Shown: positions 47,764-63,517 of the stretch, in pieces
Numbering within the stretch: position 1 is the first letter of the stretch
Layout of the letters: each line of letters opens with the position of its first letter
NCBI GenBank assembly: GCA_041661385.1
Contig: JBAZUP010000001.1
Coordinates: 418,560 to 482,559, forward strand
Source: Patescibacteria group bacterium
GTDB lineage: Bacteria > Patescibacteriota > Patescibacteriia > Magasanikbacterales > GWA2-37-8
Length of the DNA stretch: 64,000 nucleotides
Direction: 5' to 3'
Made by a program: the position numbers and the translations under genes
The notes under the pieces: model-generated
The model's database searches: none
The model's input: the letters and a program-made list of their open reading frames with translations, nothing else
Told to the model about the DNA's origin: nothing

Positions 47764-49167
47764 TTATTTTTTCTTCACTTCAATATTTGCATCATCCAAT
47801 GCTTTTTTTGGTACTGCAGAAGGTGCGCCCATCATTAGGTCGCGGGCATCGCCGGTTTTTGGTACCGCGATAACTTCTCTGATATTCGGTTCATTTGCTA
47901 AAATTGCAATTACTCGGTCAATCCCGAGCGCAATACCGCCATGGGGAGGAGCGCCAAAATCAAATGCCTCGAGCATGTGACCAAACTGATCCTGAATCTG
48001 CTCATCCTTGAAACCCATAACCTCAAAAACTTTTTTCAAAGCTCCGGATTGGTGGTTGCGGATGCTTCCCCCGCCGGCCTCGAAACCATTTAAAGCAATA
48101 TCGTATTGGGTAGTTAAAATATCGCCGATATTTTCTTTTTTCATAAGCAACTCCATATGCTCCGGTTTTGGACTTGAAAATGGATTGTGGCTAAAGGTCC
48201 AGCCGCCTTCATCGGTTTTTTCAAAAAATGGAAAATCAACCACCCAACAAAAAGCGAGCAGATCCGGATCATTTTTATCTTTCCGAAGATCCGGTTTGTC
48301 GGATTTATATTTTTCCATCGCTTCCTGATAAGTCAAACGTGGAAAAGGCATTTCTTGAATTTTTTTATGCGGCGTTACTGTCTGAACAAGTTTAATCAGC
48401 ATTTCTTCAATTACCGCCATTACATCTTCGCGTTCAACAAACGACATTTCGAGGTCTAACTGAGTAAATTCCGGCTGCCGATCACCGCGCTGATCTTCAT
48501 CTCTAAAACATCTTGCTACTTGGAAATATCTTTCCATTCCCGCCACCATCATGAGCTGTTTAAACTGCTGAGGCGATTGCGGTAAGACATAAAACTGGCC
48601 TGGATAAGTGCGGGATGGCACCAAAAACTCCCGCGCCCCTTCAGGGGTACCCTTGGTCAAAATTGGCGTTTCAATTTCCAAAAAATTATCCGCCAATAAA
48701 TGCTGGCGCATAAATTGAGTTACTGCGTTGCGCAAAACAATATTTTTTTTCATTCTTTCTGAACGCAAATCTAGATATCGATATTTAAGACGCAGTTCTT
48801 CATTTATACCTTTAGTATCTTTATCTATTTCAAATGGCGGAGTTTGCGCAGTGTTCAAAACTGTTAAAGTCTTAATTAAAATTTCAACCGTGCCGGTTGG
48901 CATCTCGGTATTTTTTTGTTTTTCACCGCGCTCTTGCACCACACCCGTAATCGAAAGCACCCATTCCGGCCTCACCTCTTTTAGAGTTTCAACCGAAACG
49001 GGATCCATTTGACTTGGCACGCCGACGCACTGCAAAATTCCCCCGCGATCGCGCAGATCAAGAAAAACAATTTTACCCATATTTCGACGGGCGTTTATCC
49101 AACCTTTTATGGTTACTTCTGTACCTACCAATTTAGGTGTTTCCACCGACAAAGTTCGTTTTGACAT
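47764..49167 (-). CDS. aspS: Aspartate--tRNA ligase, short (archaeal/non-GAD) type
   Basis: N-terminal OB fold. Class II motifs 1-3, including FRDEDQRGDRQPEFTQLD and a C-terminal GGIALGIDR. 467 aa. Confidence 0.9.
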   Translation of the reverse strand: MSKRTLSVETPKLVGTEVTIKGWINARRNMGKIVFLDLRDRGGILQCVGVPSQMDPVSVETLKEVRPEWVLSITGVVQERGEKQKNTEMPTGTVEILIKTLTVLNTAQTPPFEIDKDTKGINEELRLKYRYLDLRSERMKKNIVLRNAVTQFMRQHLLADNFLEIETPILTKGTPEGAREFLVPSRTYPGQFYVLPQSPQQFKQLMMVAGMERYFQVARCFRDEDQRGDRQPEFTQLDLEMSFVEREDVMAVIEEMLIKLVQTVTPHKKIQEMPFPRLTYQEAMEKYKSDKPDLRKDKNDPDLLAFCWVVDFPFFEKTDEGGWTFSHNPFSSPKPEHMELLMKKENIGDILTTQYDIALNGFEAGGGSIRNHQSGALKKVFEVMGFKDEQIQDQFGHMLEAFDFGAPPHGGIALGIDRVIAILANEPNIREVIAVPKTGDARDLMMGAPSAVPKKALDDANIEVKKK

Positions 49168-49399: not shown

Positions 49400-52333
49400 T
49401 TACTTACCTATTATTTCCTTCAAACCCCAAAAGGTTGAGCCGCCCTCGTGTATTAACGAATTAATTAAAGAATAAACACCCAACTTTGTTGATTTGTTTT
49501 TGTATAAAAAATCAAGTGTTTTAAACCACTCAGTATCAACATGAAATGGTTTTTTGTTTTTTCTAACCCCACCAATTAATAAGTGGAGGTTGGCGATTAC
49601 TAAGGTGTCATCAGGAGATACTTCTGCCAGTTTATTTATCATCATCGTCAGGCCATAATCCCAATCGAACGTACCACCAATTTTTTCTAACGTTAACCTA
49701 ACGGTTCTTGCAAGCCAAGCAATATCAAAAATCTCTTTTTCGTTTTCCAGCCAATAACCGAACTGGTTCAAGCACTTATTCTTGTTATTTTTTAAAACCC
49801 ACTCCCATATTTCATTTAATCGTTTTACGGCGAATGAATTTTTTTTAAGATGTTCTGTTGCTTGTGTATTCCTACCCGTAATAAACATTCTCCCAATAAA
49901 ACTGATAAAATTAGATTGCTTGTCAGTATTGTCTGCCCAAAATAATTTAAACAAGCGGTGATTAAAATCAAACTCCTCATAATGCATAAAGGCTAAAGCC
50001 ATATGCGTCGAGATACTCTCATCCGGGTCCCTAAAATATCTCCTTCCTTCATCCTTAATATTTAAATTGAGACCCTTCTCATAAAGTTCTTGAAATTTGG
50101 TCTCGAAAAACATTTCCTTATAGAGGTTATTAGATAGATAACCTTCCCACGCAGCTAAATACATGATCTCTTTTCCTATGGCCGATGTAAATACGCTAGG
50201 GATAAGAGCTAGTGCCCAATCTCTTTCCTGATAATATATTGCTGGTAAATAATGACCGAACATGAACATTATCGCTCTCGTTTTTTCATTTATTAAAACA
50301 TTTTCGTAGAGATCCTTTACATCCTTAGAAAGATTACTCTTTTTAGATTTACCAAACTTAACATCCAGTATTACAAAATTTATAAAAGCTTGAAATGCCT
50401 TGCCTCGCACTGAATTAATCGCCGTTGTATAAGGATCACCTATTTCATAATCATTATTACCAGGTGATTTAGTTCTAATTTTTGCGGTTTCGATAATTTC
50501 ATCTTTTGGAGCAGGGTCATTTTGCGAAAGCAAAAATTGGATAATGTAAAAAAAAACATCTCTTAATGCAGAAAAATCGCCGACTAATTCAATATTTCCA
50601 TCCTGTAATAGTACTCTCATTAGATTGGCCGTCGCACTATAAACTGCATTCCAATTTGCAAGCCAACCCCTACGTTTTCTCTCGTCCACTTCAAGAATCT
50701 CTTCAACGGGTCTTTTTGAAATTGCAATGGATAAATTCAGTACATTTAATAGACTTCCTCTGACAAACTTTTTTTCATTAATTAAGGAAGTTATTTTCTG
50801 AATAAATGCGTAGGTATAATGGGGATCAATATATTTGTGGTCGAAAAATAACTGAGCACTGTGAAGAAACTCCTCAGTTCTAACTTCAAATTCCTTCTTT
50901 AAACGCTCAGCCACTCCGTCACCATCAATCGGATGAAGAAAATCACCCTGACCATACTTCTCTACCAGATTCGCCGGAGCCCAATCTGATCTTAATAATT
51001 GAATAATTTCAGGAACAGTCTTAGACCAGTCAGTTTCGTTCCCGGGGGCTTTCGGTACAAGGGTACCGGAAACAATTTCACCTATAGTTGGCTGGGGATT
51101 GTAATTTTCATTTAGTTTTCCGAAGACCTCCTGCGATTTTATTTTCTCGTCTTCGGTAAGAAATGGAAATGCGGACGATAAAATATCACTACCGTGAATA
51201 TTTAGATCTTCTTCAGCTTTAAACCTATCAATTACCTTTGAAACATAAAGACGCTGATCAGCCGAGCTCAAGAATGAAAAACATGCTTGTATAAGCCTTT
51301 CGTATTCTGCGCCAAAAATTAAATCGCCTGGATCTTCGTAATCAAAAATTCGAAATAGCTCATTTCTAATATTAACCTTAAATATTTCTGGACATAATGA
51401 GAAAACATATAATTTGAGTCGCCATACAGTCCTGCTATCTGGGAGAATGTTAATATATTTACCATACATACCCATTACATAATCCTTGTTTGAAATATTT
51501 TTTTCAAAAACTTTTTTTAACAAAATTGTAACTGTTGCGGCAAGTTCTCGAACATCGTCCCTAAAAGAAATATGTTTTTGCCGATGGGAAGTTATAGTAA
51601 AAAAATCGACGTCGTAAAAATGGAATGAATCTTCTATAGAAAAAATTTTTCCTTTCTGCTTACTACCCAACAAAACTATCCTTGCAAAAACGTTAATAAC
51701 AACCGCAAGAGCTTTCTCGAGATAAGATGAGTCAATATTATTTATATAGCCAAATATATCAATGTGAGACAGGTCATTAAGATAAAAAGGATTATCGGAA
51801 AATCCCGGACCCTTATTATTTAGGTCTTCCTTTGTCCGAATTGAAAATATCGCATCAATTAAAATCAACAGATTTTCATTATCACCGGCTTTTGAAAGCG
51901 TTTCAAGCATTTTCTGATATTCAATTCCCCACCTGCTATAATTACCCATTAGAGTAACCCACTTTTCACTATAAATTTTCGGAACTAGTCGCGCTAATTG
52001 GTCTGGTGGTAATTTTTCGGCAATCCAAAGAAATTGATCCACAACCTCAGGATTAAAAGTATCTGGTGATATTGGAATTTGTAAAACTAAATCTACTACT
52101 TTTTCTGGTACTTTTTGCGCCATACGAACCAGATAATTAAGTTCTGGCATTCTGTACGAATATACTGATAAATTTTCTGCCTTACTTTTAATAGGATCCA
52201 TGAACCCATTTTCCCACAGCCAATCAAGCCAGCGTTCATCGGCTTGAGAATAAAAATATTGGTGAGAATCAAAATTCAGATCTATAATATCCTTAACCTT
52301 TTTTAGATCTAAATTTGATGGGTTAGAAGTCAT
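49400..52333 (-). CDS. Large hypothetical protein (977 aa), predominantly alpha-helical, no recognised domain
   Basis: Long uninterrupted ORF with no Walker, HExxH, nuclease or other catalytic signature that I can see. Noticeably more AT-rich than the flanking housekeeping genes. Forms a pair with the upstream 187-aa gene, separated by a 5-nt gap. Confidence 0.5.
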   Translation of the reverse strand: MTSNPSNLDLKKVKDIIDLNFDSHQYFYSQADERWLDWLWENGFMDPIKSKAENLSVYSYRMPELNYLVRMAQKVPEKVVDLVLQIPISPDTFNPEVVDQFLWIAEKLPPDQLARLVPKIYSEKWVTLMGNYSRWGIEYQKMLETLSKAGDNENLLILIDAIFSIRTKEDLNNKGPGFSDNPFYLNDLSHIDIFGYINNIDSSYLEKALAVVINVFARIVLLGSKQKGKIFSIEDSFHFYDVDFFTITSHRQKHISFRDDVRELAATVTILLKKVFEKNISNKDYVMGMYGKYINILPDSRTVWRLKLYVFSLCPEIFKVNIRNELFRIFDYEDPGDLIFGAEYERLIQACFSFLSSADQRLYVSKVIDRFKAEEDLNIHGSDILSSAFPFLTEDEKIKSQEVFGKLNENYNPQPTIGEIVSGTLVPKAPGNETDWSKTVPEIIQLLRSDWAPANLVEKYGQGDFLHPIDGDGVAERLKKEFEVRTEEFLHSAQLFFDHKYIDPHYTYAFIQKITSLINEKKFVRGSLLNVLNLSIAISKRPVEEILEVDERKRRGWLANWNAVYSATANLMRVLLQDGNIELVGDFSALRDVFFYIIQFLLSQNDPAPKDEIIETAKIRTKSPGNNDYEIGDPYTTAINSVRGKAFQAFINFVILDVKFGKSKKSNLSKDVKDLYENVLINEKTRAIMFMFGHYLPAIYYQERDWALALIPSVFTSAIGKEIMYLAAWEGYLSNNLYKEMFFETKFQELYEKGLNLNIKDEGRRYFRDPDESISTHMALAFMHYEEFDFNHRLFKLFWADNTDKQSNFISFIGRMFITGRNTQATEHLKKNSFAVKRLNEIWEWVLKNNKNKCLNQFGYWLENEKEIFDIAWLARTVRLTLEKIGGTFDWDYGLTMMINKLAEVSPDDTLVIANLHLLIGGVRKNKKPFHVDTEWFKTLDFLYKNKSTKLGVYSLINSLIHEGGSTFWGLKEIIGK

Positions 52334-52338
52334 ATTTT

Positions 52339-52902
52339 TTAACTATTTGTTGAAGTATCAACTTTAGCAGTTTCGGGCACATTTTTTAAAATGCGATCAA
52401 TTTCTAGATGGATATCAATCTGATGCGTTAAAGCGCTAAGCATTACATTTTCAAAATCTGAAACTAAGTTTTCGAAGTCTTTCTCACTAAATGAAGCATA
52501 ATCAGTGTTGTTTTTTTCCACATTTCCATGATGTGCAAGACCGTTTAATTTCCCATATATAATACCCATATCCCGAATGGTTATGGGAGTCGCGTGAACT
52601 GATCCAAATTTCTTTAGAGCCTCTGCTTTATTTGTTGGGATATCCTCCACATTAGGACTATAAAATGGATACAGAATTTCACGAAGAGAGTTTGCGGCCT
52701 GTGCCATCCAATCCGGATTGGCTTTTAAATTTTTTTGTGACACAAAAAAAGCACCCCTGAGCATATCAGAAGGCTTTGTTTTCAACCTGTATAAATCATG
52801 GAGATCATCTAACCGTCTACACAGGTCTTCTTGCTTGGGACTTAAAGCTACAGGCGATAAATCAAATTCGCCTACAGCTTTCGGCAGCTCTGAATTAACC
52901 AT
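52339..52902 (-). CDS. Hypothetical protein (187 aa) co-oriented with and directly upstream of the 977-aa gene
   Basis: ORF with no recognised motif. Tight operonic spacing. Confidence 0.45.
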   Translation of the reverse strand: MVNSELPKAVGEFDLSPVALSPKQEDLCRRLDDLHDLYRLKTKPSDMLRGAFFVSQKNLKANPDWMAQAANSLREILYPFYSPNVEDIPTNKAEALKKFGSVHATPITIRDMGIIYGKLNGLAHHGNVEKNNTDYASFSEKDFENLVSDFENVMLSALTHQIDIHLEIDRILKNVPETAKVDTSTNS

Positions 52903-53293: not shown

Positions 53294-53572
53294 TTAAACC
53301 TTTTTGTATTTTACTATTTTTTTTATTTCCACGATTCTTCTTATTACAAACAAATGGACATATTTAACTCCATTATTTTCTATAATTAGATATGCCCCTT
53401 TTGTTAAAGCTAGGATATATGCAACTGCAAAACCAAACATCAGCAGAGAAAATCCTAGGGCATCTCTAACTCCATTTGTATTTGTGATTACCGAAATGTT
53501 AATCACCCAGAACAACAAAAGAACAATAATTGTTATTTTTATTTCATTAGTCAGACTCGACTTATATTTCAT
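53294..53572 (-). CDS. Small three-TM membrane protein (immunity-like cassette member)
   Basis: 92 aa, strongly hydrophobic. Located in the array downstream of the RHS toxin genes. Confidence 0.35.
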   Translation of the reverse strand: MKYKSSLTNEIKITIIVLLLFWVINISVITNTNGVRDALGFSLLMFGFAVAYILALTKGAYLIIENNGVKYVHLFVIRRIVEIKKIVKYKKV

Positions 53573-53589: not shown

Positions 53590-54399
53590 TTATTGTTTCT
53601 GTACAGAATTTCTAGCAACTTCAACAAGATATGCTTTATAACCTAAGCTCCAATAAGCCAACAGCCAAATAAATCCTGTTAAACCAAACCAGCCGGCCAC
53701 AAACATTATCACAATTTTATCTAAGGTCAACAGAATGCCAGTTAGAATTATAAATATTTTATTTCCGCGATAAATTACTACTCCTAGAATAAAGTAAATA
53801 ATCAATGAAACCACTAAAAAAAGAGTTATGGGCGTTTTTAACAAAGCAACATAACCTACGGTTATAATAACGGACAAAAATATCACCATAGCACTTTGTT
53901 TTCGATATGATTTCCAAACAGACAAAGAATTGTAATTTTTTATTTGGAACTCCTTTTCTTCTTGTGACATTTTGAATGTCCCGGATTTAATCGGGCTTTG
54001 TTCACTTCCTACCTGGTTAAATCTGCCTTTAAGATGTTTATGGAAGAAAATCCAAACAATCAGAATAAGCATTAACTCGAATATATTAAAAGAAATATAT
54101 CCATTGTGACCAGCAAAAAAGTTCGCCAGGGTGTCAAAAACAATTACCAAAACAGAATAACCAAAAACAATATTTGTCCAAATTAATATCTTTTCAACCA
54201 TTTTTACCAGCTTATAAAGATAAAAACCTGATATAATTAAATCTATTGTATGCACGACCCCAGCAGCAACATTTGTAAGAACATTTCCATAGAAATCTGC
54301 ACCTCTCATCAAACCCGATATACCAAGAAGATCAATAAGAATATTCAAACCCAATAGAACTAAGATAAACCAGATAAATGTAGATTTTTTTTTATTCAT
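53590..54399 (-). CDS. Multi-pass membrane protein (269 aa), candidate immunity protein for the orphan RHS toxin
   Basis: About six TM helices. Immediately downstream of the orphan RHS-CT cassette and the 80-aa protein. Confidence 0.4.
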   Translation of the reverse strand: MNKKKSTFIWFILVLLGLNILIDLLGISGLMRGADFYGNVLTNVAAGVVHTIDLIISGFYLYKLVKMVEKILIWTNIVFGYSVLVIVFDTLANFFAGHNGYISFNIFELMLILIVWIFFHKHLKGRFNQVGSEQSPIKSGTFKMSQEEKEFQIKNYNSLSVWKSYRKQSAMVIFLSVIITVGYVALLKTPITLFLVVSLIIYFILGVVIYRGNKIFIILTGILLTLDKIVIMFVAGWFGLTGFIWLLAYWSLGYKAYLVEVARNSVQKQ

Positions 54400-54403
54400 A
54401 AAA

Positions 54404-54646
54404 TTAGCTTCTTGTTTGTATATAGGTTGCTATTAAAGTAAGCACAATGATGAACACTCCAATAAACATTATTATCCATTTGGTAATCCTGTCTTTATCC
54501 GAGCTGTCCAACCCACCCACGGAACCAGCGCCAAATGGGCCGAACCACCACGCTACTTTTTTAGCTACCTTAATTACACTTTCAAGCTGCGATGCGAAAA
54601 TGATTAAAACACCTAGTGCAAGGACTGAAAGATTTATAAGCTTCAT
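54404..54646 (-). CDS. Small two-TM membrane protein (80 aa), candidate immunity protein
   Basis: Overlaps the stop of the orphan RHS-CT ORF by 4 nt (translational coupling). Hydrophobic. Confidence 0.4.
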   Translation of the reverse strand: MKLINLSVLALGVLIIFASQLESVIKVAKKVAWWFGPFGAGSVGGLDSSDKDRITKWIIMFIGVFIIVLTLIATYIQTRS

Positions 54647-55683
54647 AATTTGGTCTTTTTTGGACTTACAATTTTTGACTCAACATGATCAATTATGCTT
54701 TTTCCAGTGGTAAGCTGACTAGCCTTATCCAGAGTATTATAAATTATCTTACCAGTTTTTTCAGTGAGATATTTAAGAGTTGATTGACCCACTCCAGCAG
54801 ATTTAGCGTTCCGATATATTTTATATGCAGGCGATACTTTGGAAACATACGTGGGAACGTCTTTTGCAGAGAAGAACAATAGATCCCCTCCTGTTGCAGC
54901 AGAATCAAACAACGTATTATCTTTCAAAATTGAATTCGAGAACTCGCGATATGGTCCCTGCGTGTTTGAACGAGATGGTTCCCGATCCATGAAGGAACCA
55001 ACAATGTTTTCAGCTGCATTTGATGAATCGGCAAATGCACTATCTAAGTTGCCTAAAGATCCTGCTGTTAGCAAGGCGGCTGCCTGAGGCTGTCCTACGG
55101 CTAATGCTCCCCCAGCGAAGATTGCTTGTGGTACGGCTGCAAGTCCGTCTAAGACGGTTTTTCCAACTTGAAGCGCTCCCACACCAAATGTTTTTGCAGC
55201 GAACTCACCCGCTTCATCAACGTAATTCAAGGGGTTGTTTAGAGCATAGGAATAGCTATTCATATGCTGGGGGTTAGAGAGATAACTTTGTAGATCCATT
55301 TTTGTATACCTTCTAATCTGATCAGAGTCTCCAACTGCCAGAAATGCTGGATCCTGGGATAGGAGCTGACATCTCGAACCATCCTGATATCGAGCTCCCA
55401 TATAGTTCAAACCGGTATCCATGTCGTACTCATGTCCAGTAAATTTCTTTGGTTCGTTTAACCCGTTTGTCTGTTCATCAATCCGTATACCACCATATGG
55501 ATAGTAATCTGTCAACTCCGCAATGGTCCCGGTCACTGTGGTCATAATATTTGACCCACCTAAGTGGTCAGTATGAACGTTATATACACTAGAACTAGCA
55601 TTAGACCCTTTTACCGTAGCGACAAGCGTATCACCAAGATAAAATTGCTTCATGGTTGTTGTGCCACTGACCGTGTATGCCAT
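54643..55683 (-). CDS. Orphan RHS repeat-associated core domain plus alternative C-terminal toxin domain (displaced rhs-CT cassette)
   Basis: HTDHLGGSNIMTTVTG...DYYPYGGIRIDE...NYMGARYQDGSRCQLLSQDP...NSYSYALNNPLNYVDEAGEF is the canonical RHS core (xxHxDHLGS...YYPFG...ARYYDP...R..S.DP...N.Y.Y..NNP...D). It is followed by a ~190-aa unrelated C-terminal region with a Gly/Ala-rich stretch (FGVGALQVGK...AIFAGGALAVG). Confidence 0.7.
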   Translation of the reverse strand: MAYTVSGTTTMKQFYLGDTLVATVKGSNASSSVYNVHTDHLGGSNIMTTVTGTIAELTDYYPYGGIRIDEQTNGLNEPKKFTGHEYDMDTGLNYMGARYQDGSRCQLLSQDPAFLAVGDSDQIRRYTKMDLQSYLSNPQHMNSYSYALNNPLNYVDEAGEFAAKTFGVGALQVGKTVLDGLAAVPQAIFAGGALAVGQPQAAALLTAGSLGNLDSAFADSSNAAENIVGSFMDREPSRSNTQGPYREFSNSILKDNTLFDSAATGGDLLFFSAKDVPTYVSKVSPAYKIYRNAKSAGVGQSTLKYLTEKTGKIIYNTLDKASQLTTGKSIIDHVESKIVSPKKTKL

Positions 55684-55696
55684 AGCTCGAATAATA

Positions 55697-56044
55697 CTAG
55701 TCGATCAACCACCCAAGATAATAAAACTGAACAAATATCATTATTACCTGCATTAAAAACAATAATGACCCGACTAATGCTGACTTAATTTTATTATATT
55801 GCCTAAGCTCATTTACGGTTAATATAATATTTACTCCAACTAAAATCAAAAGTGGATAATAAATTATGAAATTTTCTATTTGGCTACGCCAAGGCCCGTG
55901 ATTAATGCCATTTGCATACCAAACTGATTCGGGTGGTAGAAATATATAATACGATTCAAACCAATATATTATAAATGGTAAAAGCCATGCGACTAAAGTT
56001 AAGATATATAAAATTAAATCTTGCCGCTTAAATTTGGTTAGCAT
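55697..56044 (-). CDS. Membrane protein (115 aa), candidate cognate immunity protein of the main RHS toxin
   Basis: Starts 2 nt after the stop of the giant RHS gene. Three TM helices with periplasm-facing loops. Confidence 0.45.
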   Translation of the reverse strand: MLTKFKRQDLILYILTLVAWLLPFIIYWFESYYIFLPPESVWYANGINHGPWRSQIENFIIYYPLLILVGVNIILTVNELRQYNKIKSALVGSLLFLMQVIMIFVQFYYLGWLID

Positions 56045-56045
56045 A

Positions 56046-59000
56046 TTATTTCTTAGTTGCTTTTATAATAGATTTGATTATCGACACGGCATTCTTAATA
56101 TCCGTAACAATATTTCTGTTATAATTTGGGTTATTTAATTGTGCTTGTACCCTCTGCCCATAAGATGTGACGCCTTTGGCTGGGCTATAGTTATATCTAC
56201 TCGCAGTGAGTGCCGTACTATCGGACCGACCTTGCTCTTTTGCAATATTACGAACTCCGGCATCGATGTTTTTTGCTGGATCGCGAGCTAGCTCTGCTTT
56301 GTTATAACCATATTCTTTTCCGATCTTGCCACTTACCTGCATTACCCCAACACCGCCACTACCAACATTTGGAAATAACTGCTCACGACCAAGTACTTCA
56401 TCCGGCTGTAAGTGCGATTGCTCTTCGTACATAATCGCATTAGTAAGATTGGAACTAACTCCATATTTAGTACTTGCATCATTAACAGTTGTTTGATTTT
56501 GCTGAATTGCTTCCAACGCGCGCTCATGACCACCAAAAACTTCTCCAGTTTTCATCATAAACCCACTAACACCAGAATACCCGCTCCAGTCGTAAAATCC
56601 ATACCACCAAAATCTACCATCTGGATCTTTATTTACAACTGGATTATTACCGGCATATGCATACGCATTCATAGCTTGCGGATTTAATAGTGCATCTTTA
56701 CCATCCGAAGTTAGTCCGATTTCCCCAAATACTGGATCTTGTGACACAAACTGCCCGCGTGCTGAATCATAATATCTCGCATTAAGATATGACAAACTAT
56801 TATCATCTGTAAACTGACCGATAAATTTGCGCTTATCGCTAGCAGTACCGGCATTTATTCGCTCGGCACCGTATGGATAATAATCGACCGCCTGAATAAT
56901 ATTTGCACCTGAATCCGTAATAATATTTGTGCTTCCAAGTTGGTCGGAATGAACAAAATGTGTTGAAGATACACTACCGTTTTTCTCAACTGTTGCCAAG
57001 AGATCACTACCAACGAATATATATTTTGTGGATGTGTTTCCTACTATACTGTAGTATCTATTGGAATATGTTGTGGTTGTTCCACCCGTTCCAAGTTTAC
57101 GATACATCACCCTGTTACCGTCTTGGTCATACAGGTAGGTTGAAGTAACCCTGTTTGCAGTGGATGTTGCGAGTTGATTGCGATAGTCCCAAGTATACAG
57201 TATGCTCGCCGAAGACGATGTCATGTTGCCATTCTTGTCATAGCTAAATGTTGTTGTGCCGACAGCTGTTACCGCATCCGGATTGGCATAACTAGAACCC
57301 TGGTAACCCAAATAGCTATAATCCCCAACGTCACTGCGATTAGTGATATTTCCTAGTGCATCATAAGCATAGGTTTGAGTGTAATCACCACTTTTTACAG
57401 CATCGGTGACTTTAGCCGAGAGCAAACGGTTCAAATTATCATAGCTGTAGATATTAAGCTTGCTGGTACTGGTTGAAGAATTATCTAAAATTTGAGTAAT
57501 GTTACCAACCTTGTCGTAAGCGTAACTCAAGTTCTGTATAGCATTGCCTGGTGCATAGAAATAATCACGGCCATTGGTCCAAGCCCCCTCATTACCAAGG
57601 TTATCCCAGAATTTGATACGCCAGAAGTATTTCATGCCATTATTTGGAATTGCTGGGCCAGCATAGGCAATATTTGGTGTTCTTGCACCGACAGCAATGC
57701 TAGGAGAAAGTGTTTGTGAGCCAGAATCCCAGAGTGGCGCGGAGAAATCGGCCCCGCTTTGAGTAACTTGTATTCTATAATTAGTCGCTGAGGTGGAAGT
57801 GTTAGCTGATTCATACAGCGCGCTGAATTGTGGGGTAGAAGTAATCTTGGTCGCCTGCTTTGGCCAGAAATGAACATTATCAAACCAGATTGTATTCGTT
57901 GACGAACCTAAATAGAACATCAAACGAACATTTGAATCACCCTGTGATGGCGTAATTTCAAATTGGTAAGTCTTCCATGCTGGATTTAACAGGAATGTGT
58001 TATACGAAAGATCTGAATATGCATCATGGTTCTGGTTAATTGCGACCGCTTCAGTGGTACTAACGGTTCCTTTGGCATCAAAGGATAAAATATAGGTCGT
58101 TGAAGTCGCGACTGCAGTATTTTGCGCAAGTTGCACCTGCCAGGCTTGCCCACCATAATTAACTATTGTTTTATTTGAGCAGCCGCCATCGGTTGTACTG
58201 GTAGTACAATCAACTGAATTTGTTGACTGGCCTGTGCCACCGTTTGACCAAGCATACCAATTGTTCATGCTCGTTTCAAAACTTTGGTTCTTGATCATAT
58301 TCAAGCCGTCTGGAATAACTTCCACGTCATCAAACCAAATGGTACTGGTGCTAGCACCTAGATAATAGAATACCCGTGCCAGTTCATCTGTACCATTACT
58401 GGTGAATGAATATGTATATTGCTTCCAATTTGGTGTAATACTGACACCAGTTGCAAGGCCATAATCCGACCAGGGGCTATGGTCTTGATTAATACCAAAG
58501 GTAATCGTTGTAGTAGCGTTGGCTTTGGCCCTAAACTTCACAGTGTAATTCATTCCATTATCTACGCGTAAATCTTGCCAGAGCTGTGAATCCCAAACAT
58601 TGCCGCCAGTCGGTACAGTGACCTGTTGTGAACAATTACCAGTATATGAAGCAGTGCAATCAAGTGTGGCAGTGCCTGTTGCAGACCAATACTTCCAAAC
58701 GCTAAGCAATGCTCCCTCAAAACTATCATCATAAATTATGCTTTGAGTAATAGCCAGACCGTTTACAGTCATATTCCGTGGAGCAGTCGGACCACCAGCT
58801 ACACCCGAAGAAGAAGTATTGATTAGATAATATGCACCCGGCATTAGTCCCTCACCATAGTAACCAACGCTGCTGGTTGGCAACGACGTATTTTTGTTAA
58901 TGAGACGATAGAGCCGATTCGCATCATATGTAAATGTAGTTGTGACTCCAGATGGATATGTGATTTGTGCAGTCTGACCGAGGGGTGAATAAATAATATT

Positions 59001-62000
59001 GCTTACCAGTGTCTTGAAACTACCGTCACTGTTTTCCTTGTAATTCACTGCCTGCGGTCGGTTCGCTGAATTATACACATACTGCACTTGTGAGTTATCC
59101 GGGTAGGTGATGTTGGTGTTATTTCCTAGTCGATCATAACTGTATTGAGTTACATAATTAACATTATTTATCTTCTTCGTTTCTTGCTTCAAATGTCCAT
59201 TACCGTCATAAACATTATTAACAATCGCGCCAGTTGAAGTGACCGAACAGAATTTACCAACACCATAAGTGCACCTATCATAACCATAAGTAACTTCAGT
59301 ACCGCTCTTGCCGGTATAATCTTCTGTTAATACTCGATTTAACTTGTCGTAAGTATAATTAACGGTTTGCTTATTTGGATCAACTTTTTGAGTTAGGTTG
59401 CCATTATTATCATAAACAAAAGTTGAGGTACCAAAAGTAGTATCACCTGAAGAGTGTAGATCTTCCACACCAACACGTCTACCAAGACCATCATAAGCAA
59501 AACTACGGACATTACTCAATGAATCTGTGACGCTGATCAAATTTCCAAGTCCGTTGTATGTGTAATTTGTGGTATAGGTGCTACCGTTATTTATTTCCTC
59601 AACTTTAACTAAATTGTCGTAGGCATCTTTATATAGATTCTTACTATTTCCATTAGCATCAGTTGCGGTCAGTTTCCAACGGTCATAAGAGTTGGTGGAA
59701 GTTCCAACCGAATCAATTGTTACAACAAGACGTAGCAGAGGATCATATAAATATGTTTTATATAATGACTGAGTGGTTGTCGCAGTTGTTGAAGCTGAAC
59801 CAGATGAGAAATACGGTAGAGATTCTTTTTCAATCGGACCACGCGATCCATATACGAAATCGGTGACTGAGTAATTACCCGAATCATCAACTCTTTGTCG
59901 TTTCTGAATTGTTCGGTCTAATCCATCGGTATACGCATAACTATCGGTAGTGGTTGCGTTATTTAAATAATCAGTTTGCTTAATTTGCCAACCAATTGAT
60001 TGTGGCGTGTACAAATATTCTGTTGATGTAACCAAGGTTGATGTGGTAGTGAGATCTGGTTTTAAAATCGCAACTACCCTATCTAAACCGTCAAATACTG
60101 TCTGATACTTAAGGTTATTTTGGTCGATTACCTGTTTAGGTTTACCATTTGAATAGTCATAAGACTTTATAACCTTGTAAGACAACGCATCGGTTGTGGT
60201 TGTTGGGTAAAGGTTATAGCTGTCATAGTTGTAGGTCGTTGTATTGCCCAAAGCATCGATATCACTGGTTACAAGGCCATAAGAATTGTATATTTTTTGA
60301 TTATTTATATAAGTCGTGCTGGTTTGCCATGATTCCTGCTTGGTCATATTTCCTTTTAAAACTACGCCGATGGTCGAGGTGTCATAATAATATCTGTCCT
60401 GTTTTACTTTAAGAGTGTTATAGTCGGAAACTAAAACTGATGACGGTAAACCAAGAATGTATGAGCTGGTATTAATTGCAAAGGTGTAATCAGTCGTGTA
60501 CGAATCTGTTCCCGTATCACTAAATGTGCCATCGTCATTCCCACTTACCTCGCCCCAATCTATTTGTTGCAACAAATTTCCGGTGCTGGTCGTGTTATAT
60601 GTGAAACTTTGAGCTTTATCTTTATGGGAAGCATTACCATCATATGTATAATCGACACTTTGCGTTTCAAAAACAAATCGCGAACTAGTACTTAAAACAG
60701 CTTCATCCCATTTATTAATATTTTTTGTAAAAAGACTTCCGTTTATATCGTATGTTTCGACACGATATGGCTTGTTGATTTTATAATAGCTATCATTATA
60801 TTCCCCATGCGATGAGTCGCTTGTATCACCCTGGTGATAATAGGTGCTTACATAATTCCCAAAACTGTCCGTCTTGGTAACTTTGTTAAATCCAGCAAAT
60901 TTACGATCTAAAGTGTTACCATAATATAATTTTCCACCTTCATATTTGAACGAGGATGAGTTAGTTGTACCCAAACCATCAAGGTTCCGAATTTGTAAAA
61001 CCGTATTTAAAACCATTGGCAAATTTGGGTTAGCTAAGTTTGAGCCAGTTCTATAAAAAGTAGTGGCCTGATAATCGACCAGGGTTATCCCGCCTGAGCT
61101 ATGTTTTACAGAAATCAATAAATCAGATGCTCTTTTGGTATTATTTAAATAAACATAATTTTGAATATAATCCTGTCTATACGCATTCCAACCATTTTTT
61201 AAAATATCTGGCAATCCATCTCCATTAATATCCATTATTCTTACACCTAGATCGTAAGTAGAGTTTGCAAAATTTTGCGGAGAACTCCACGAATTATCTG
61301 ATTGAAAACCAGTTCCAGTGTTTATATAACCACCGTTTTCCGGATTATCACTAGTATTATAATTAATTAATCCCCGGACTATAATGTCGTCAAGTCCATC
61401 ACCATTAATATCAGAAATTCTCGCACCGTAATCGACAGATTGATCCCATGGACCCATTGGATTATATATTTTAACCGGCTGACTAATAGAACTATCGCAC
61501 ACCCAACCGTGGCCATTGTTTAAACAAATACTTTTTTGATAACCTCCAGATGTATTGGTGCCTTGAATAATATCAACCAAACCATCACCATTTACATCGC
61601 CAAAAACGGTACCGTTGTCAATTACTGGAAGTGACCACTGTGGATCTGGAGAAACAAACAAACTACCATTATTTATGGCTACATAAGCAACCCAATGAAT
61701 AGAATCCGAACGGTATATATCAAGCAGACCATCCCCGTTTAAATCTACAAATCTAGTACCCAGGTCCCAACTATTATTTACCATATCGACAACCGGAAAC
61801 GAACCAGGAGGAGAAAAATTACTATCTATTGGTCCAAAATTTGTACCAGTGTTTGAGAAAGCCCATGAAGTTGGGGTTTGCTGAGCAATCCAAGACCCTA
61901 TGATATCGCTTAGTCCGTCACCATTATAATCAGCCACTCTTGATCCCATGTCGAAATTTGAAACACCAGAAGCATCATAAAATGCTCTAAACGAACCAAA

Positions 62001-63398
62001 AGTAGTGCTAGTAGTCCAAGTCCCATCACCATTATTAAAATAGACTAAACTTGTTGATGCTGCACCACCTGAAGATTGCCAAGAAGAAAGCACATCCTGA
62101 AGACCATCTCCGTTCGCATCTCCGAATTGATTACATACATTAATTCCTGCCTTAGTTAACCAGTTTCCATCTTGCGTCCAACCTGGAGTCGAAGTTGAAT
62201 AACTAAAAGTGGTAGTAGGTATCCTGGTTACAACCCCTAGATCATCCTGACCCTGCTCAGAAATCGTTGATAATAATGACCTATAGCCATTAGCCCCCGT
62301 TATATATTGCAAAAAATATTTTCTCAACCAACTCCCACTAATATTTACATCAATTTCATAAATTCTATAATTTGAAACTACCTTAAACCCCGTTTTATAT
62401 TGTTGCAGAGCATCACTGCGACTTTCTCTTAAGAAATTGACGGTGAATATCCCCTGCGTTGTGCTATTGACGGTATAGGTAATAGCCGAGGGATAAATTT
62501 GACCGCCATCTTTAAAATATTCGTATTTAATAAAATTATCATTCGTATCTCGTACTTCCTGTAGCATCCATTTATAAATATGACTTGTACTACTGGCGTC
62601 AAACTGCTGTGTTGACGTGTCCACTCCAAACTTATATATTGTTCCTTTTTTATCAGTTACAACCCAAGTACTTGAAGAATATGTGTATTTTAGAAAATCG
62701 CCATTTTCAACTTTTGCTTGATAAGTGGTGGTATTTATCTGAACTAGTTCATCACTTAAACTTGAAAAAAATGTCGAGGTTGCCGAATATAACCGGTCTA
62801 CCCCATATCGATTAATTAATTGAATATACGGAATATTTACACTCCAACCATAGCCAAAAACACTGGAATTGTCCGTGTCTTGACTGTTATAACGAAGTTT
62901 TATATCCGGTTGGAAACCGTTTCTTCCTGGCGGTATAATTATTGGATATTCATTAATAAAGGCACCCGAGCTTAAATCTACCCCTGGTAAATGAAATGTA
63001 TTTACCGGCTCAAGAAAACTCGCTGACACTGCCGAACCAGAAGTAAGCGTATTTTGTGTTATTGATTTTTTACTTACAGTGTTATCCTTAGCCGGCAAAC
63101 TATCTAAAGTTGATGGTTCGGTCGCCACATTATCAGGCACAATTGTCGTGGAATCAACGGGAGCTGTTGGTGTAATTTCCACAACTGGATCAGGATTAAT
63201 AATAGTAGTTTCAATTGGCTGGGGAGTTAGATCAGGCAAAGACACCAACGTATCTACACTTACTGTGAGTGAATCAGGTGTCGTTATTACAGGCTCATCA
63301 ACAGCCAAGACATTGGGTGCTGATAAAATAAAAAACGAAGTTAGCGCAACTGCGAATAACTTCGTCGTAATAAAACGATATCGTTTGTTTCCCTCCAT
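56046..63398 (-). CDS. Giant secreted RHS/YD-repeat polymorphic toxin, Tc-toxin (TcB-TcC)/teneurin-like: signal peptide, SpvB domain, FG-GAP-type propeller repeats, tandem CBM-like modules, YD repeats, RHS core, C-terminal lytic-transglycosylase-like toxin domain
   Basis: The track ORF is 56046..63506 with a TTG start inside a terminator hairpin, so the in-frame ATG near 63398 (MEGNKRYRF... signal peptide ...SAPNVLA) is the more likely start. SpvB motif IIIPPGRNGFQPDIKLRYNSQDTDNSSVFGYGWSVNIPYI. Six or more D-x-N-G-D-G-L-x-D repeats. YD repeats (YTYNGLGN, YAYDGLGR, YDNNGN, YSYDRLGN, YAYDKVGN, YLYDQDGN and others). RHS core ...VHSDQLGSTNIITD...YYPYGAE...ARYYDSARGQFVSQDP...AYAGNNPVVNKDPDGRF. C-terminal ~190 aa carry EEQS ... 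GVMQV ... RYNYSP, resembling SLT motifs I-III. Confidence 0.85.
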   Translation of the reverse strand: MEGNKRYRFITTKLFAVALTSFFILSAPNVLAVDEPVITTPDSLTVSVDTLVSLPDLTPQPIETTIINPDPVVEITPTAPVDSTTIVPDNVATEPSTLDSLPAKDNTVSKKSITQNTLTSGSAVSASFLEPVNTFHLPGVDLSSGAFINEYPIIIPPGRNGFQPDIKLRYNSQDTDNSSVFGYGWSVNIPYIQLINRYGVDRLYSATSTFFSSLSDELVQINTTTYQAKVENGDFLKYTYSSSTWVVTDKKGTIYKFGVDTSTQQFDASSTSHIYKWMLQEVRDTNDNFIKYEYFKDGGQIYPSAITYTVNSTTQGIFTVNFLRESRSDALQQYKTGFKVVSNYRIYEIDVNISGSWLRKYFLQYITGANGYRSLLSTISEQGQDDLGVVTRIPTTTFSYSTSTPGWTQDGNWLTKAGINVCNQFGDANGDGLQDVLSSWQSSGGAASTSLVYFNNGDGTWTTSTTFGSFRAFYDASGVSNFDMGSRVADYNGDGLSDIIGSWIAQQTPTSWAFSNTGTNFGPIDSNFSPPGSFPVVDMVNNSWDLGTRFVDLNGDGLLDIYRSDSIHWVAYVAINNGSLFVSPDPQWSLPVIDNGTVFGDVNGDGLVDIIQGTNTSGGYQKSICLNNGHGWVCDSSISQPVKIYNPMGPWDQSVDYGARISDINGDGLDDIIVRGLINYNTSDNPENGGYINTGTGFQSDNSWSSPQNFANSTYDLGVRIMDINGDGLPDILKNGWNAYRQDYIQNYVYLNNTKRASDLLISVKHSSGGITLVDYQATTFYRTGSNLANPNLPMVLNTVLQIRNLDGLGTTNSSSFKYEGGKLYYGNTLDRKFAGFNKVTKTDSFGNYVSTYYHQGDTSDSSHGEYNDSYYKINKPYRVETYDINGSLFTKNINKWDEAVLSTSSRFVFETQSVDYTYDGNASHKDKAQSFTYNTTSTGNLLQQIDWGEVSGNDDGTFSDTGTDSYTTDYTFAINTSSYILGLPSSVLVSDYNTLKVKQDRYYYDTSTIGVVLKGNMTKQESWQTSTTYINNQKIYNSYGLVTSDIDALGNTTTYNYDSYNLYPTTTTDALSYKVIKSYDYSNGKPKQVIDQNNLKYQTVFDGLDRVVAILKPDLTTTSTLVTSTEYLYTPQSIGWQIKQTDYLNNATTTDSYAYTDGLDRTIQKRQRVDDSGNYSVTDFVYGSRGPIEKESLPYFSSGSASTTATTTQSLYKTYLYDPLLRLVVTIDSVGTSTNSYDRWKLTATDANGNSKNLYKDAYDNLVKVEEINNGSTYTTNYTYNGLGNLISVTDSLSNVRSFAYDGLGRRVGVEDLHSSGDTTFGTSTFVYDNNGNLTQKVDPNKQTVNYTYDKLNRVLTEDYTGKSGTEVTYGYDRCTYGVGKFCSVTSTGAIVNNVYDGNGHLKQETKKINNVNYVTQYSYDRLGNNTNITYPDNSQVQYVYNSANRPQAVNYKENSDGSFKTLVSNIIYSPLGQTAQITYPSGVTTTFTYDANRLYRLINKNTSLPTSSVGYYGEGLMPGAYYLINTSSSGVAGGPTAPRNMTVNGLAITQSIIYDDSFEGALLSVWKYWSATGTATLDCTASYTGNCSQQVTVPTGGNVWDSQLWQDLRVDNGMNYTVKFRAKANATTTITFGINQDHSPWSDYGLATGVSITPNWKQYTYSFTSNGTDELARVFYYLGASTSTIWFDDVEVIPDGLNMIKNQSFETSMNNWYAWSNGGTGQSTNSVDCTTSTTDGGCSNKTIVNYGGQAWQVQLAQNTAVATSTTYILSFDAKGTVSTTEAVAINQNHDAYSDLSYNTFLLNPAWKTYQFEITPSQGDSNVRLMFYLGSSTNTIWFDNVHFWPKQATKITSTPQFSALYESANTSTSATNYRIQVTQSGADFSAPLWDSGSQTLSPSIAVGARTPNIAYAGPAIPNNGMKYFWRIKFWDNLGNEGAWTNGRDYFYAPGNAIQNLSYAYDKVGNITQILDNSSTSTSKLNIYSYDNLNRLLSAKVTDAVKSGDYTQTYAYDALGNITNRSDVGDYSYLGYQGSSYANPDAVTAVGTTTFSYDKNGNMTSSSASILYTWDYRNQLATSTANRVTSTYLYDQDGNRVMYRKLGTGGTTTTYSNRYYSIVGNTSTKYIFVGSDLLATVEKNGSVSSTHFVHSDQLGSTNIITDSGANIIQAVDYYPYGAERINAGTASDKRKFIGQFTDDNSLSYLNARYYDSARGQFVSQDPVFGEIGLTSDGKDALLNPQAMNAYAYAGNNPVVNKDPDGRFWWYGFYDWSGYSGVSGFMMKTGEVFGGHERALEAIQQNQTTVNDASTKYGVSSNLTNAIMYEEQSHLQPDEVLGREQLFPNVGSGGVGVMQVSGKIGKEYGYNKAELARDPAKNIDAGVRNIAKEQGRSDSTALTASRYNYSPAKGVTSYGQRVQAQLNNPNYNRNIVTDIKNAVSIIKSIIKATKK

Positions 63399-63492
63399 AT
63401 ATTTAATAAATTTTCTTGTTCTAGATGAACAAATAACTGACCATAATATATACCCTTTTAAAACAACCTTGCAACTTAGGCTGTGGATAACA

Positions 63493-63517
63493 AAAAACCG
63501 CCCCAAAAGGCGGTTTT
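63493..63517 (-). terminator. Terminator of the upstream 145-aa gene
   Basis: Minus-strand hairpin aaccgcc-tttt-ggggcggtt followed by a U-run. Confidence 0.55.

Follow-up and report, generated by a model that had tools for sequence, protein, structure and literature searches.

An orphan rhs toxin-immunity cassette with a putative membrane-acting C-terminal domain, apparently stranded beside the main rhs gene of a Patescibacteria genome

The DNA analysed here is a 64,000-nucleotide stretch (hereafter the window) of contig JBAZUP010000001.1, which belongs to the genome of a member of the Patescibacteria (Candidatus Magasanikbacteria), and our subject is a small cassette in its rhs locus, located next to the main rhs gene. 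By exact sequence match the locus occurs in two assemblies of metagenomic origin, one labelled 'Patescibacteria group bacterium' and the other 'Candidatus Magasanikbacteria bacterium'. An uninterrupted row of minus-strand genes encodes, in this order, an RHS protein of 2486 amino acids (aa) and proteins of 115, 346, 80, 269, 92 and 55 aa (coordinates in Table 1). The 346-aa open reading frame (ORF), here called the orphan, begins 13 nucleotides (nt) past the 115-aa gene, in the same orientation as the full rhs gene and with an in-frame stop 8 codons upstream. Together with the gene that follows it, the orphan forms a cassette of three parts: what remains of an RHS core (160 codons), a complete C-terminal domain (CT) of 187 aa, and a tightly coupled 80-aa gene whose product has two transmembrane (TM) segments. 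No other RHS pieces were found within the window besides the main rhs gene and this orphan.

The orphan, its C-terminal domain and the two-TM gene

Residues 1-160 of the orphan match the TIGR03696 model (Rhs_assc_core) at E 2.3e-15 and 56.8 bits, against a cut-off of 32.5, and align by BLASTP with residues 2152-2304 of the main RHS protein (E 7e-30, 40% identity over 164 aa). The ORF begins at the core-equivalent residue 2152, without the N-terminal shell and the secretion parts. Past NNPLNYVD157-E-A-G160 the sequence is unrelated to the SLT-type CT of the main gene, which confirms what an earlier reading of the letters alone (hereafter the sequence-only reading) had claimed, namely that the ORF starts inside an RHS core and then switches to unrelated sequence.

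Both the CT and the two-TM family that accompanies it are rare and unannotated. The profile searches of the CT proposed in the sequence-only reading were carried out with HMMER, exhaustively against 1.84 billion representative proteins, and yielded 8 relatives at E < 1e-10 (relatives are referred to below by P numbers for proteins and L numbers for loci). No annotated family was matched: the CT has no match in Pfam, NCBIfam, PADLOC or the sequences of the Protein Data Bank (PDB), and no member of the family has one in Pfam at E<=1. In two relatives, P0004 (2032 aa; SpvB, FG-GAP and RHS) and P0005 (2003 aa), the CT forms the extreme C-terminus of a full-length RHS protein, right after DPxG, and it is therefore a real RHS payload. 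The architecture of P0004 is the same as that of the main RHS protein of the window, to which it is 36% identical over ~1590 aa. Orphan-like, 5'-truncated relatives also occur (P0003, P0006, P0007, P0002/L001 and P0009), several of them in typical arrays; that of P0003 runs main RHS, Imm26, orphan, 110-aa gene, P0003 and 79-aa gene, while in the array at L009 further orphans accompany a main RHS and an immunity gene. A profile word-index search with the CT alignment, limited by saturation of its candidates, returned only three proteins, all already known, and none of the matches to patterns from a CT alignment (47 in genome contigs, 600 in metagenome contigs) was confirmed. A degenerate DNA pattern for IYxNAxSAGVG picked out five loci in metagenome contigs, which were rejected as chance matches by tblastn. 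At one of the related loci, the P0007 orphan and its 88-aa immunity gene (L002:1343-3763) lie right after an IS3-type transposase pair (HTH_Tnp_2, rve), an adjacency that suggests one route of cassette movement.

The CT of the window is 35-50% identical to those of its relatives and comprises 187 residues after DxxG, compared with 185-187 in the closest relatives and 216 in P0005, where the C-terminus is extended. Conserved blocks in its N-half are TFGxGLLQxGK, a small-residue-rich segment ending in GQPQ, GNLDxAFxDxxNxxxNIVG and QGPYR, and those of the polar C-half are PxYVxK, AxKIYxNAKSAGVG and ILDHVE. Having the full family length and all family motifs, the window CT is therefore intact. Its best-conserved part is a Gly/Ala-rich segment (aa ~163-210; G+A 38%), likewise conserved in the relatives, with 12 small-xxx-small motifs ([GAS]xxx[GAS]), 6 of them triple; the number of canonical GxxxG motifs is 0 in the whole window CT and 0-3 in the relatives. 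Conserved Cys or His residues are absent from the CT, and no net charge is conserved (isoelectric points 4.3-9.2). An AlphaFold2 model predicts an all-helical domain in which the Gly/Ala-rich N-half forms a helical hairpin around the GQPQ turn.

The border of an RHS CT is marked by the aspartyl-protease motif DPxGL, with a catalytic Asp in the second motif (PMC8636562). In the orphan this border reads NNPLNYVD-E-A-G-E-F, in which the Gly is retained, as is the Asp known as catalytic from other Rhs proteins (PMC8636562), but not the Pro and Leu. A D-[EV]-x-G-[EK]-F border is found in four independent cassettes, namely those of the window, P0003, L001 (2020-2060) and P0006, and a canonical DPxG border in P0004, P0005, P0007, P0008 and P0011. 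Because the variant is common to four independent cassettes, it is probably a clade trait rather than a sign of decay. The core tip of the orphan is also nearer to the tips that carry the same CT elsewhere (55% identity with L001, 51% with P0003 and 47% with P0004) than to that of its own neighbour, the main RHS (43%), and shares with them an insertion of ~20 residues (FLAVGD...YLSNPQHMNSYSYA). Core tip, CT and immunity gene therefore travel as a single module. The codons of the conserved NSYSYA core motif contain a 26-nt near-perfect palindrome (24/26) at 55243-55268, with an E of 1e-4 in a blastn search of the sequence against its own reverse complement; it may simply reflect the choice of AGCTAT/TCCTAT codons.

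The start of the 80-aa gene overlaps the stop of the toxin by ATGA, and hydropathy gives its product two clear hydrophobic segments, so that the coupling of the 346-aa ORF to a two-TM gene noted in the sequence-only reading holds. Its conserved features are a run of basic residues following TM1 and the motif S..DKDRI, which precedes TM2. A two-TM homologue of 80-89 aa follows the CT, overlapping it or at a distance of <=10 nt, in six independent loci (the window, L001, L002/L003, L004, L007 and L009-L013), which supports the 80-aa gene as cognate immunity, and one further contig, for which there are protein records only, has a 79-aa gene in the same position. Pairwise E-values in the two-TM family range from 1e-19 to 1e-3. 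When the L004 fragment was left out of the hidden Markov model (HMM) of the family, the model recovered it at E 1.3e-7, with no other match in the ~170 kb searched. Five members of the family were compared with Pfam and gave no match at E<=10, Imm17 included, and the 80-aa protein has none in NCBIfam or PADLOC either. The GC content of the loci that have both CT and two-TM gene spans 0.34 to 0.58, and the pair therefore travels jointly among widely differing genomes. Moreover, the two-TM gene is intact beside toxins that are damaged, by a frameshift in L001 and by loss of the 5' half in L009-13, a pattern that is expected for immunity retention. We regard the 80-aa protein as a well-supported candidate for the cognate immunity protein.

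The damaged locus just mentioned, L009:8575-11486 (and L010-L013), has its 5'-less CT remnant beside a 266-aa gene with a sub-threshold match to Mutator transposases. The same locus further encodes an 82-aa homologue of the immunity protein, which is intact, as well as a 126-aa membrane protein and another orphan of 145 aa.

Recombination with the main rhs gene

According to the sequence-only reading, the cassette is a reservoir for toxin switching by recombination with the main rhs gene, through a block of nucleotide homology between the two cores. We did not find this block. A blastn comparison of the orphan core with the main rhs DNA at word size 7 gave nothing significant (best E 0.67), the longest exact word common to the orphan and the main rhs is 11 nt, at a non-homologous position, and a MAFFT alignment of the two core DNAs contains similarity at the level of codon drift only. 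By contrast, positive controls gave clear blocks by the same procedure: the 145-aa orphan of L009 shares 300 bp at 94% with its main rhs, and the L001 orphan, which belongs to the same CT family, shares 164 bp at 91% with the tip of the rhs upstream. The 145-aa orphan of L009 is a textbook case of a recombination-competent orphan, in contrast to that of the window.

Two observations had been named as speaking against the sequence-only reading, a lack of nucleotide homology with the main core and a lack of conservation of the ORF in relatives. Only the first was made, the CT being conserved. Taken together, the missing DNA homology and the conservation of the CT in relatives describe a cassette that is real but stranded, and as judged from its DNA it is not currently swappable onto the adjacent rhs gene by homologous recombination. 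Compositional evidence for a recent foreign origin is weak: GC is 0.43 in the orphan vs 0.39 in the window, and GC at third codon positions is 0.41 in the orphan core vs 0.26 in the main core tip.

Neighbouring genes of the locus

The main RHS protein is by its Pfam matches a secreted SpvB/FG-GAP/RHS fusion, made up of an RHS/YD shell, an RHS core (TIGR03696 at aa 2209-2297) and an SLT lytic-transglycosylase CT (aa 2341-2443; 25.3 bits vs a cut-off of 21.3). Two CBM_4_9 domains and one Ig (Rha78A-like) domain are inserted between the shell repeats and the core, at aa ~1590-1980. A hydrophobic N-terminal segment at aa 45-69 resembles a signal peptide, and the probable start is the internal MEGNKRY... 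The 115-aa gene overlaps the rhs stop with its own start (TAATATG), and hydropathy predicts three TM segments in its product, which forms a singleton cluster with no homologues and has no match in Pfam, NCBIfam or PADLOC. The CT of the main RHS and the 115-aa gene are apparently a peptidoglycan-cleaving RHS payload with its membrane immunity candidate.

Table 1. Positions of the main features of the rhs locus within the 64-kb window.
Feature	Position	Strand	Basis
Main rhs gene, 2486 aa as listed	56046..63506	-	Pfam, TIGR03696, hydropathy
115-aa three-TM protein, by position immunity candidate for the main SLT-type CT	55697..56044	-	
Orphan ORF, 346 aa	54643..55683	-	RHS core fragment plus CT
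Orphan RHS core fragment, aa 1-160	55204..55683	-	TIGR03696, identity to main RHS
Orphan CT, aa 161-346 plus stop	54643..55203	-	Small unannotated family
80-aa two-TM protein, cognate immunity candidate	54404..54646	-	Synteny, homologues
269-aa polytopic membrane protein	53590..54399	-	Hydropathy; singleton
92-aa two-TM protein	53294..53572	-	Hydropathy; singleton cluster

A polytopic membrane protein of 269 aa is indeed encoded after the 80-aa gene, at a distance of 4 nt, with about six to seven hydrophobic segments by hydropathy where six had been claimed, and with a polar loop at aa 122-166 between them. Of the two membrane immunity candidates put forward in the sequence-only reading, however, only the 80-aa protein is upheld, by its synteny in six loci. 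The 269-aa protein retrieved only itself in a word-indexed search of a collection of 5.8 billion clusters, has no homologue or counterpart in any related locus, and has no match in Pfam, NCBIfam or PADLOC. As a singleton that is absent from related loci, it therefore has nothing to support an immunity role, for which its position in the gene row is the sole argument. Tight rows of genes on one strand can include immunity genes that stand alone (Zhang et al. 2012, PMC3482391), and at most the 269-aa gene would be an immunity-type or membrane gene of this solitary kind, unrelated to the orphan's toxin. In L001 and L009 the immunity gene is followed by one for a 126-aa membrane protein, and we considered whether the 269-aa protein might be related to these by duplication or fusion. 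We rejected this possibility; the comparison gave one weak match (29% over 58 aa, E 2.6e-4, with no composition correction), and none with L001. The 92-aa protein is a singleton cluster with no match to the HMM of the two-TM immunity family or in Pfam, NCBIfam or PADLOC; by position alone, it may be another stand-alone immunity-type gene.

A scan for promoters and terminators gave numbers no higher than chance (24 vs 19.5+/-3.6; 4 vs 3.1+/-1.7). Directly downstream of the row of membrane proteins lie a 187-aa gene (52339-52902, minus strand) and a 977-aa gene (49400-52333, minus strand), in the part of the window with the lowest GC (0.34-0.35 vs 0.39-0.40); their products have no match in Pfam, NCBIfam or PADLOC. 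At 467 aa, the aspartate-tRNA ligase encoded at 47764-49167 (minus strand) is short; two stretches of it match the bacterial profile, which is 590 aa long, and it seemingly lacks the usual insertion domain, which fits the reduced genome of a member of the Patescibacteria.

Interpretation and comparison with known systems

The explanation that we favour, with moderate confidence, is that the segment is an orphan rhs toxin-immunity cassette with a membrane-acting CT and an 80-aa immunity protein, left stranded beside the main rhs gene. When part of a full RHS protein, the CT would be cut off after the DxxG border by the aspartyl protease of the core and, once released, would act on the cytoplasmic membrane of the target, where the Gly/Ala-rich helical hairpin would insert and dissipate the membrane potential in the manner of Tse5-CT (see below); the 80-aa protein would block the CT within the membrane. 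For this genome, the function open to selection would most likely be that of the immunity gene, guarding against neighbours that deploy the same toxin, with the toxin part kept as a silent spare, and the cassette would probably have arrived, or been displaced, together with its own diverged core tip. A membrane target is suggested because the immunity candidate is an integral membrane protein, because the CT has no enzymatic signature, and because the Gly/Ala hairpin is its best-conserved part. It is mainly from the membrane-embedded immunity candidate that we infer a membrane-depolarising mechanism, and the idea of a pore-forming toxin, already raised in the sequence-only reading, remains plausible.

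Several observations weigh against this explanation. The Gly/Ala hairpin has a maximum Kyte-Doolittle mean over 19 residues of 1.48, below the usual TM threshold of 1.6, and no canonical GxxxG; the glycine-zipper-like stretch of the sequence-only reading accordingly stands as a Gly/Ala-rich and conserved part of the domain, and not as a canonical zipper. The AlphaFold2 model is of low confidence (mean predicted local distance difference test score 45.6), and a Foldseek search of the PDB with this poor model returned only generic helical bundles at E>0.8. P0011 matches the N-half of the CT only (query positions 13-104) and then continues into a different C-half, a hint that the toxin may consist of two modules and that the Gly/Ala part is perhaps not the one that kills. 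No two-TM homologue was found near the full-length carriers L005 and L006, and an obligatory immunity partner is therefore not universal. Within the orphan itself, the border is DEAG, not DPxG, and conserved core positions are substituted (ARYQDGSRCQL vs ARYYDxxxGRF), which leaves the processing competence of its core uncertain. Finally, the comparison covered 64 kb of the ~779-kb contig (protein records MFA6105430.1 / MFA6490494.1), and an rhs gene with matching DNA could be located elsewhere in the genome. As to what does follow the two full-length carriers, in L005 (6295-6565) only a 52-aa non-membrane ORF lies downstream of the RHS gene, and in L006 (16009-18660) an overlapping gene encodes a secreted RCC1-repeat protein of 883 aa.

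The two halves of the CT might instead be separate modules, the Gly/Ala-rich one (aa ~161-250) serving translocation or entry and the polar one (aa ~250-346) being the toxin, either a cytoplasmic enzyme or a binder. P0011 (L008) would fit such a division, as its N-half is joined to an unrelated C-half and no two-TM gene lies nearby or downstream, and so would the remnant in L009, which has the C-half only and still keeps its two-TM gene. There are precedents in the DNase Tde1, whose glycine zipper is needed for translocation (PMC10240207), and in the entry-plus-toxin layout of CdiA-CT (PMC11630599), and the polar half contains invariant residues (the K of YVSK, the E of HVE and the N of NAK). 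We nevertheless think this division unlikely, given that no enzyme family is matched in Pfam, NCBIfam or PDB, that no Cys or His is conserved, and that immunity proteins to cytoplasmic enzymes are normally soluble, whereas here the candidate is an 80-aa two-TM protein; P0011, moreover, is a single short contig.

It would be more surprising if the cassette were a decaying relic, with a toxin ORF no longer functional or translated and with selection on the immunity gene only, or on nothing at all. Decay would account for the missing homology for redeployment, for the lack of a recognisable Shine-Dalgarno sequence before the ATG, for a start on which gene callers, including that of NCBI, disagree (300 vs 346 aa), and for the substitutions at conserved core positions (RYQDGSRCQL; DEAG), and relatives do exhibit decayed toxins beside intact immunity genes. 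Yet no interruption breaks the ORF, which has the full length of the family and keeps all the CT motifs at 35-50% identity, and a D-[EV]-x-G-[EK]-F border found in four independent cassettes is probably a clade trait and not random decay. An active reservoir, in which homologous recombination within the shared core lets the orphan switch the tip of the main rhs gene and both membrane proteins are immunity proteins, is already disfavoured and very improbable. This is how arrays of rhs orphans generally behave (Zhang et al. 2012, PMC3482391), the L001 orphan of the same CT family has the shared block with its upstream rhs tip described above, and gene order and orientation at the window locus fit; but the two cores, 40% identical in protein, have no detectable DNA similarity beyond an exact word of 11 nt, and no locus links the 269-aa protein to the CT family.

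The architecture of the stranded cassette is ordinary, in that RHS orphan cassettes and membrane-targeting RHS toxins are both established concepts. What is new lies in the details: a pairing of toxin and immunity families that is rare and has no annotation (about eight relatives in 1.84 billion representatives), its occurrence in the Patescibacteria, whose weaponry against hosts or competitors is almost unexplored, and a clear case of an orphan that is unable to recombine with the neighbouring rhs gene. Given that this orphan has no recombination match to its neighbour, position alone does not make a usable reservoir. A further proposal, which we put forward only tentatively and hold to be rather doubtful, is that the pair is a new family of RHS-delivered membrane-depolarising toxin and intramembrane immunity, which the Patescibacteria would deploy on Sec-exported SpvB/FG-GAP/RHS cocoons. 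As the full-length carriers have no immunity gene, the deployed form may target non-kin cells, perhaps the host of the episymbiont or its competitors, and the immunity gene would survive mainly in orphan cassettes, as a defence. If an ultrasmall episymbiont did use such a pore-former, this would offer a concrete handle on how these cells damage or compete with other bacteria.

Among known systems, the orphan rhs-CT/rhsI cassettes (Zhang et al. 2012, PMC3482391) are the closest in layout. They too have a 5'-truncated core start, a variable CT and an adjacent immunity gene, and lie downstream of a full rhs gene and its immunity gene in the same orientation; the arrays of these cassettes are also seen at loci related to ours. 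The window cassette differs from them in having no nucleotide homology block to the main gene and DEAG for DPxG, as well as in its host, one of the Patescibacteria, where RHS is fused to SpvB/FG-GAP and of the Sec type, not a PAAR-Rhs protein of a type VI secretion system (T6SS).

With respect to the CT, the only pore-forming one that Zhang et al. 2012 catalogued for RHS toxins is Tox-WTIP, a two-helix membrane-spanning domain with RxxR and Wx[ST]IP motifs. It is, as the window CT may be, a membrane-spanning toxin on RHS carriers, and differs in the Wx[ST]IP motif, which is impossible in the window CT because there is no Trp in it. Imm17 is likewise a two-TM immunity family, with WxW and a conserved Arg between the TMs as its features, whereas the 80-aa protein has WW, which is not conserved in the alignment of its family. 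Outside RHS proteins, EsxX is a glycine-zipper toxin with the membrane immunity pair ExiCD (PMC12744356), and ionophores of contact-dependent inhibition (CDI) are paired with membrane CdiI proteins (PMC11630599). These systems and the window pair have in common a polymorphic toxin that ends in a small helical domain with many small residues, small or polytopic membrane immunity proteins, and immunity genes that can persist as orphans. Their carriers are different (LXG proteins of type VII and CdiA of type V secretion), the window CT has no canonical GxxxGxxxG, and there is no sequence similarity.

The best functional analogy for the window pair is Tse5/Tsi5. Tse5 (RhsP1)-CT of Pseudomonas aeruginosa is an RHS-encapsulated pore former whose depolarising activity has been demonstrated (PMC9637101, PMC10684867), and Tsi5 has two predicted TM regions (PMC9637101). 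A search of PDB sequences with the CT profile found no RHS-toxin chain at E<=1, in a set not confirmed to include the Tse5 CT. Tse5 differs in being delivered by a T6SS; what would unite the two is a CT encapsulated by RHS for which no enzymatic function is predicted, helical segments of moderate hydrophobicity, and an immunity protein with two TM segments.

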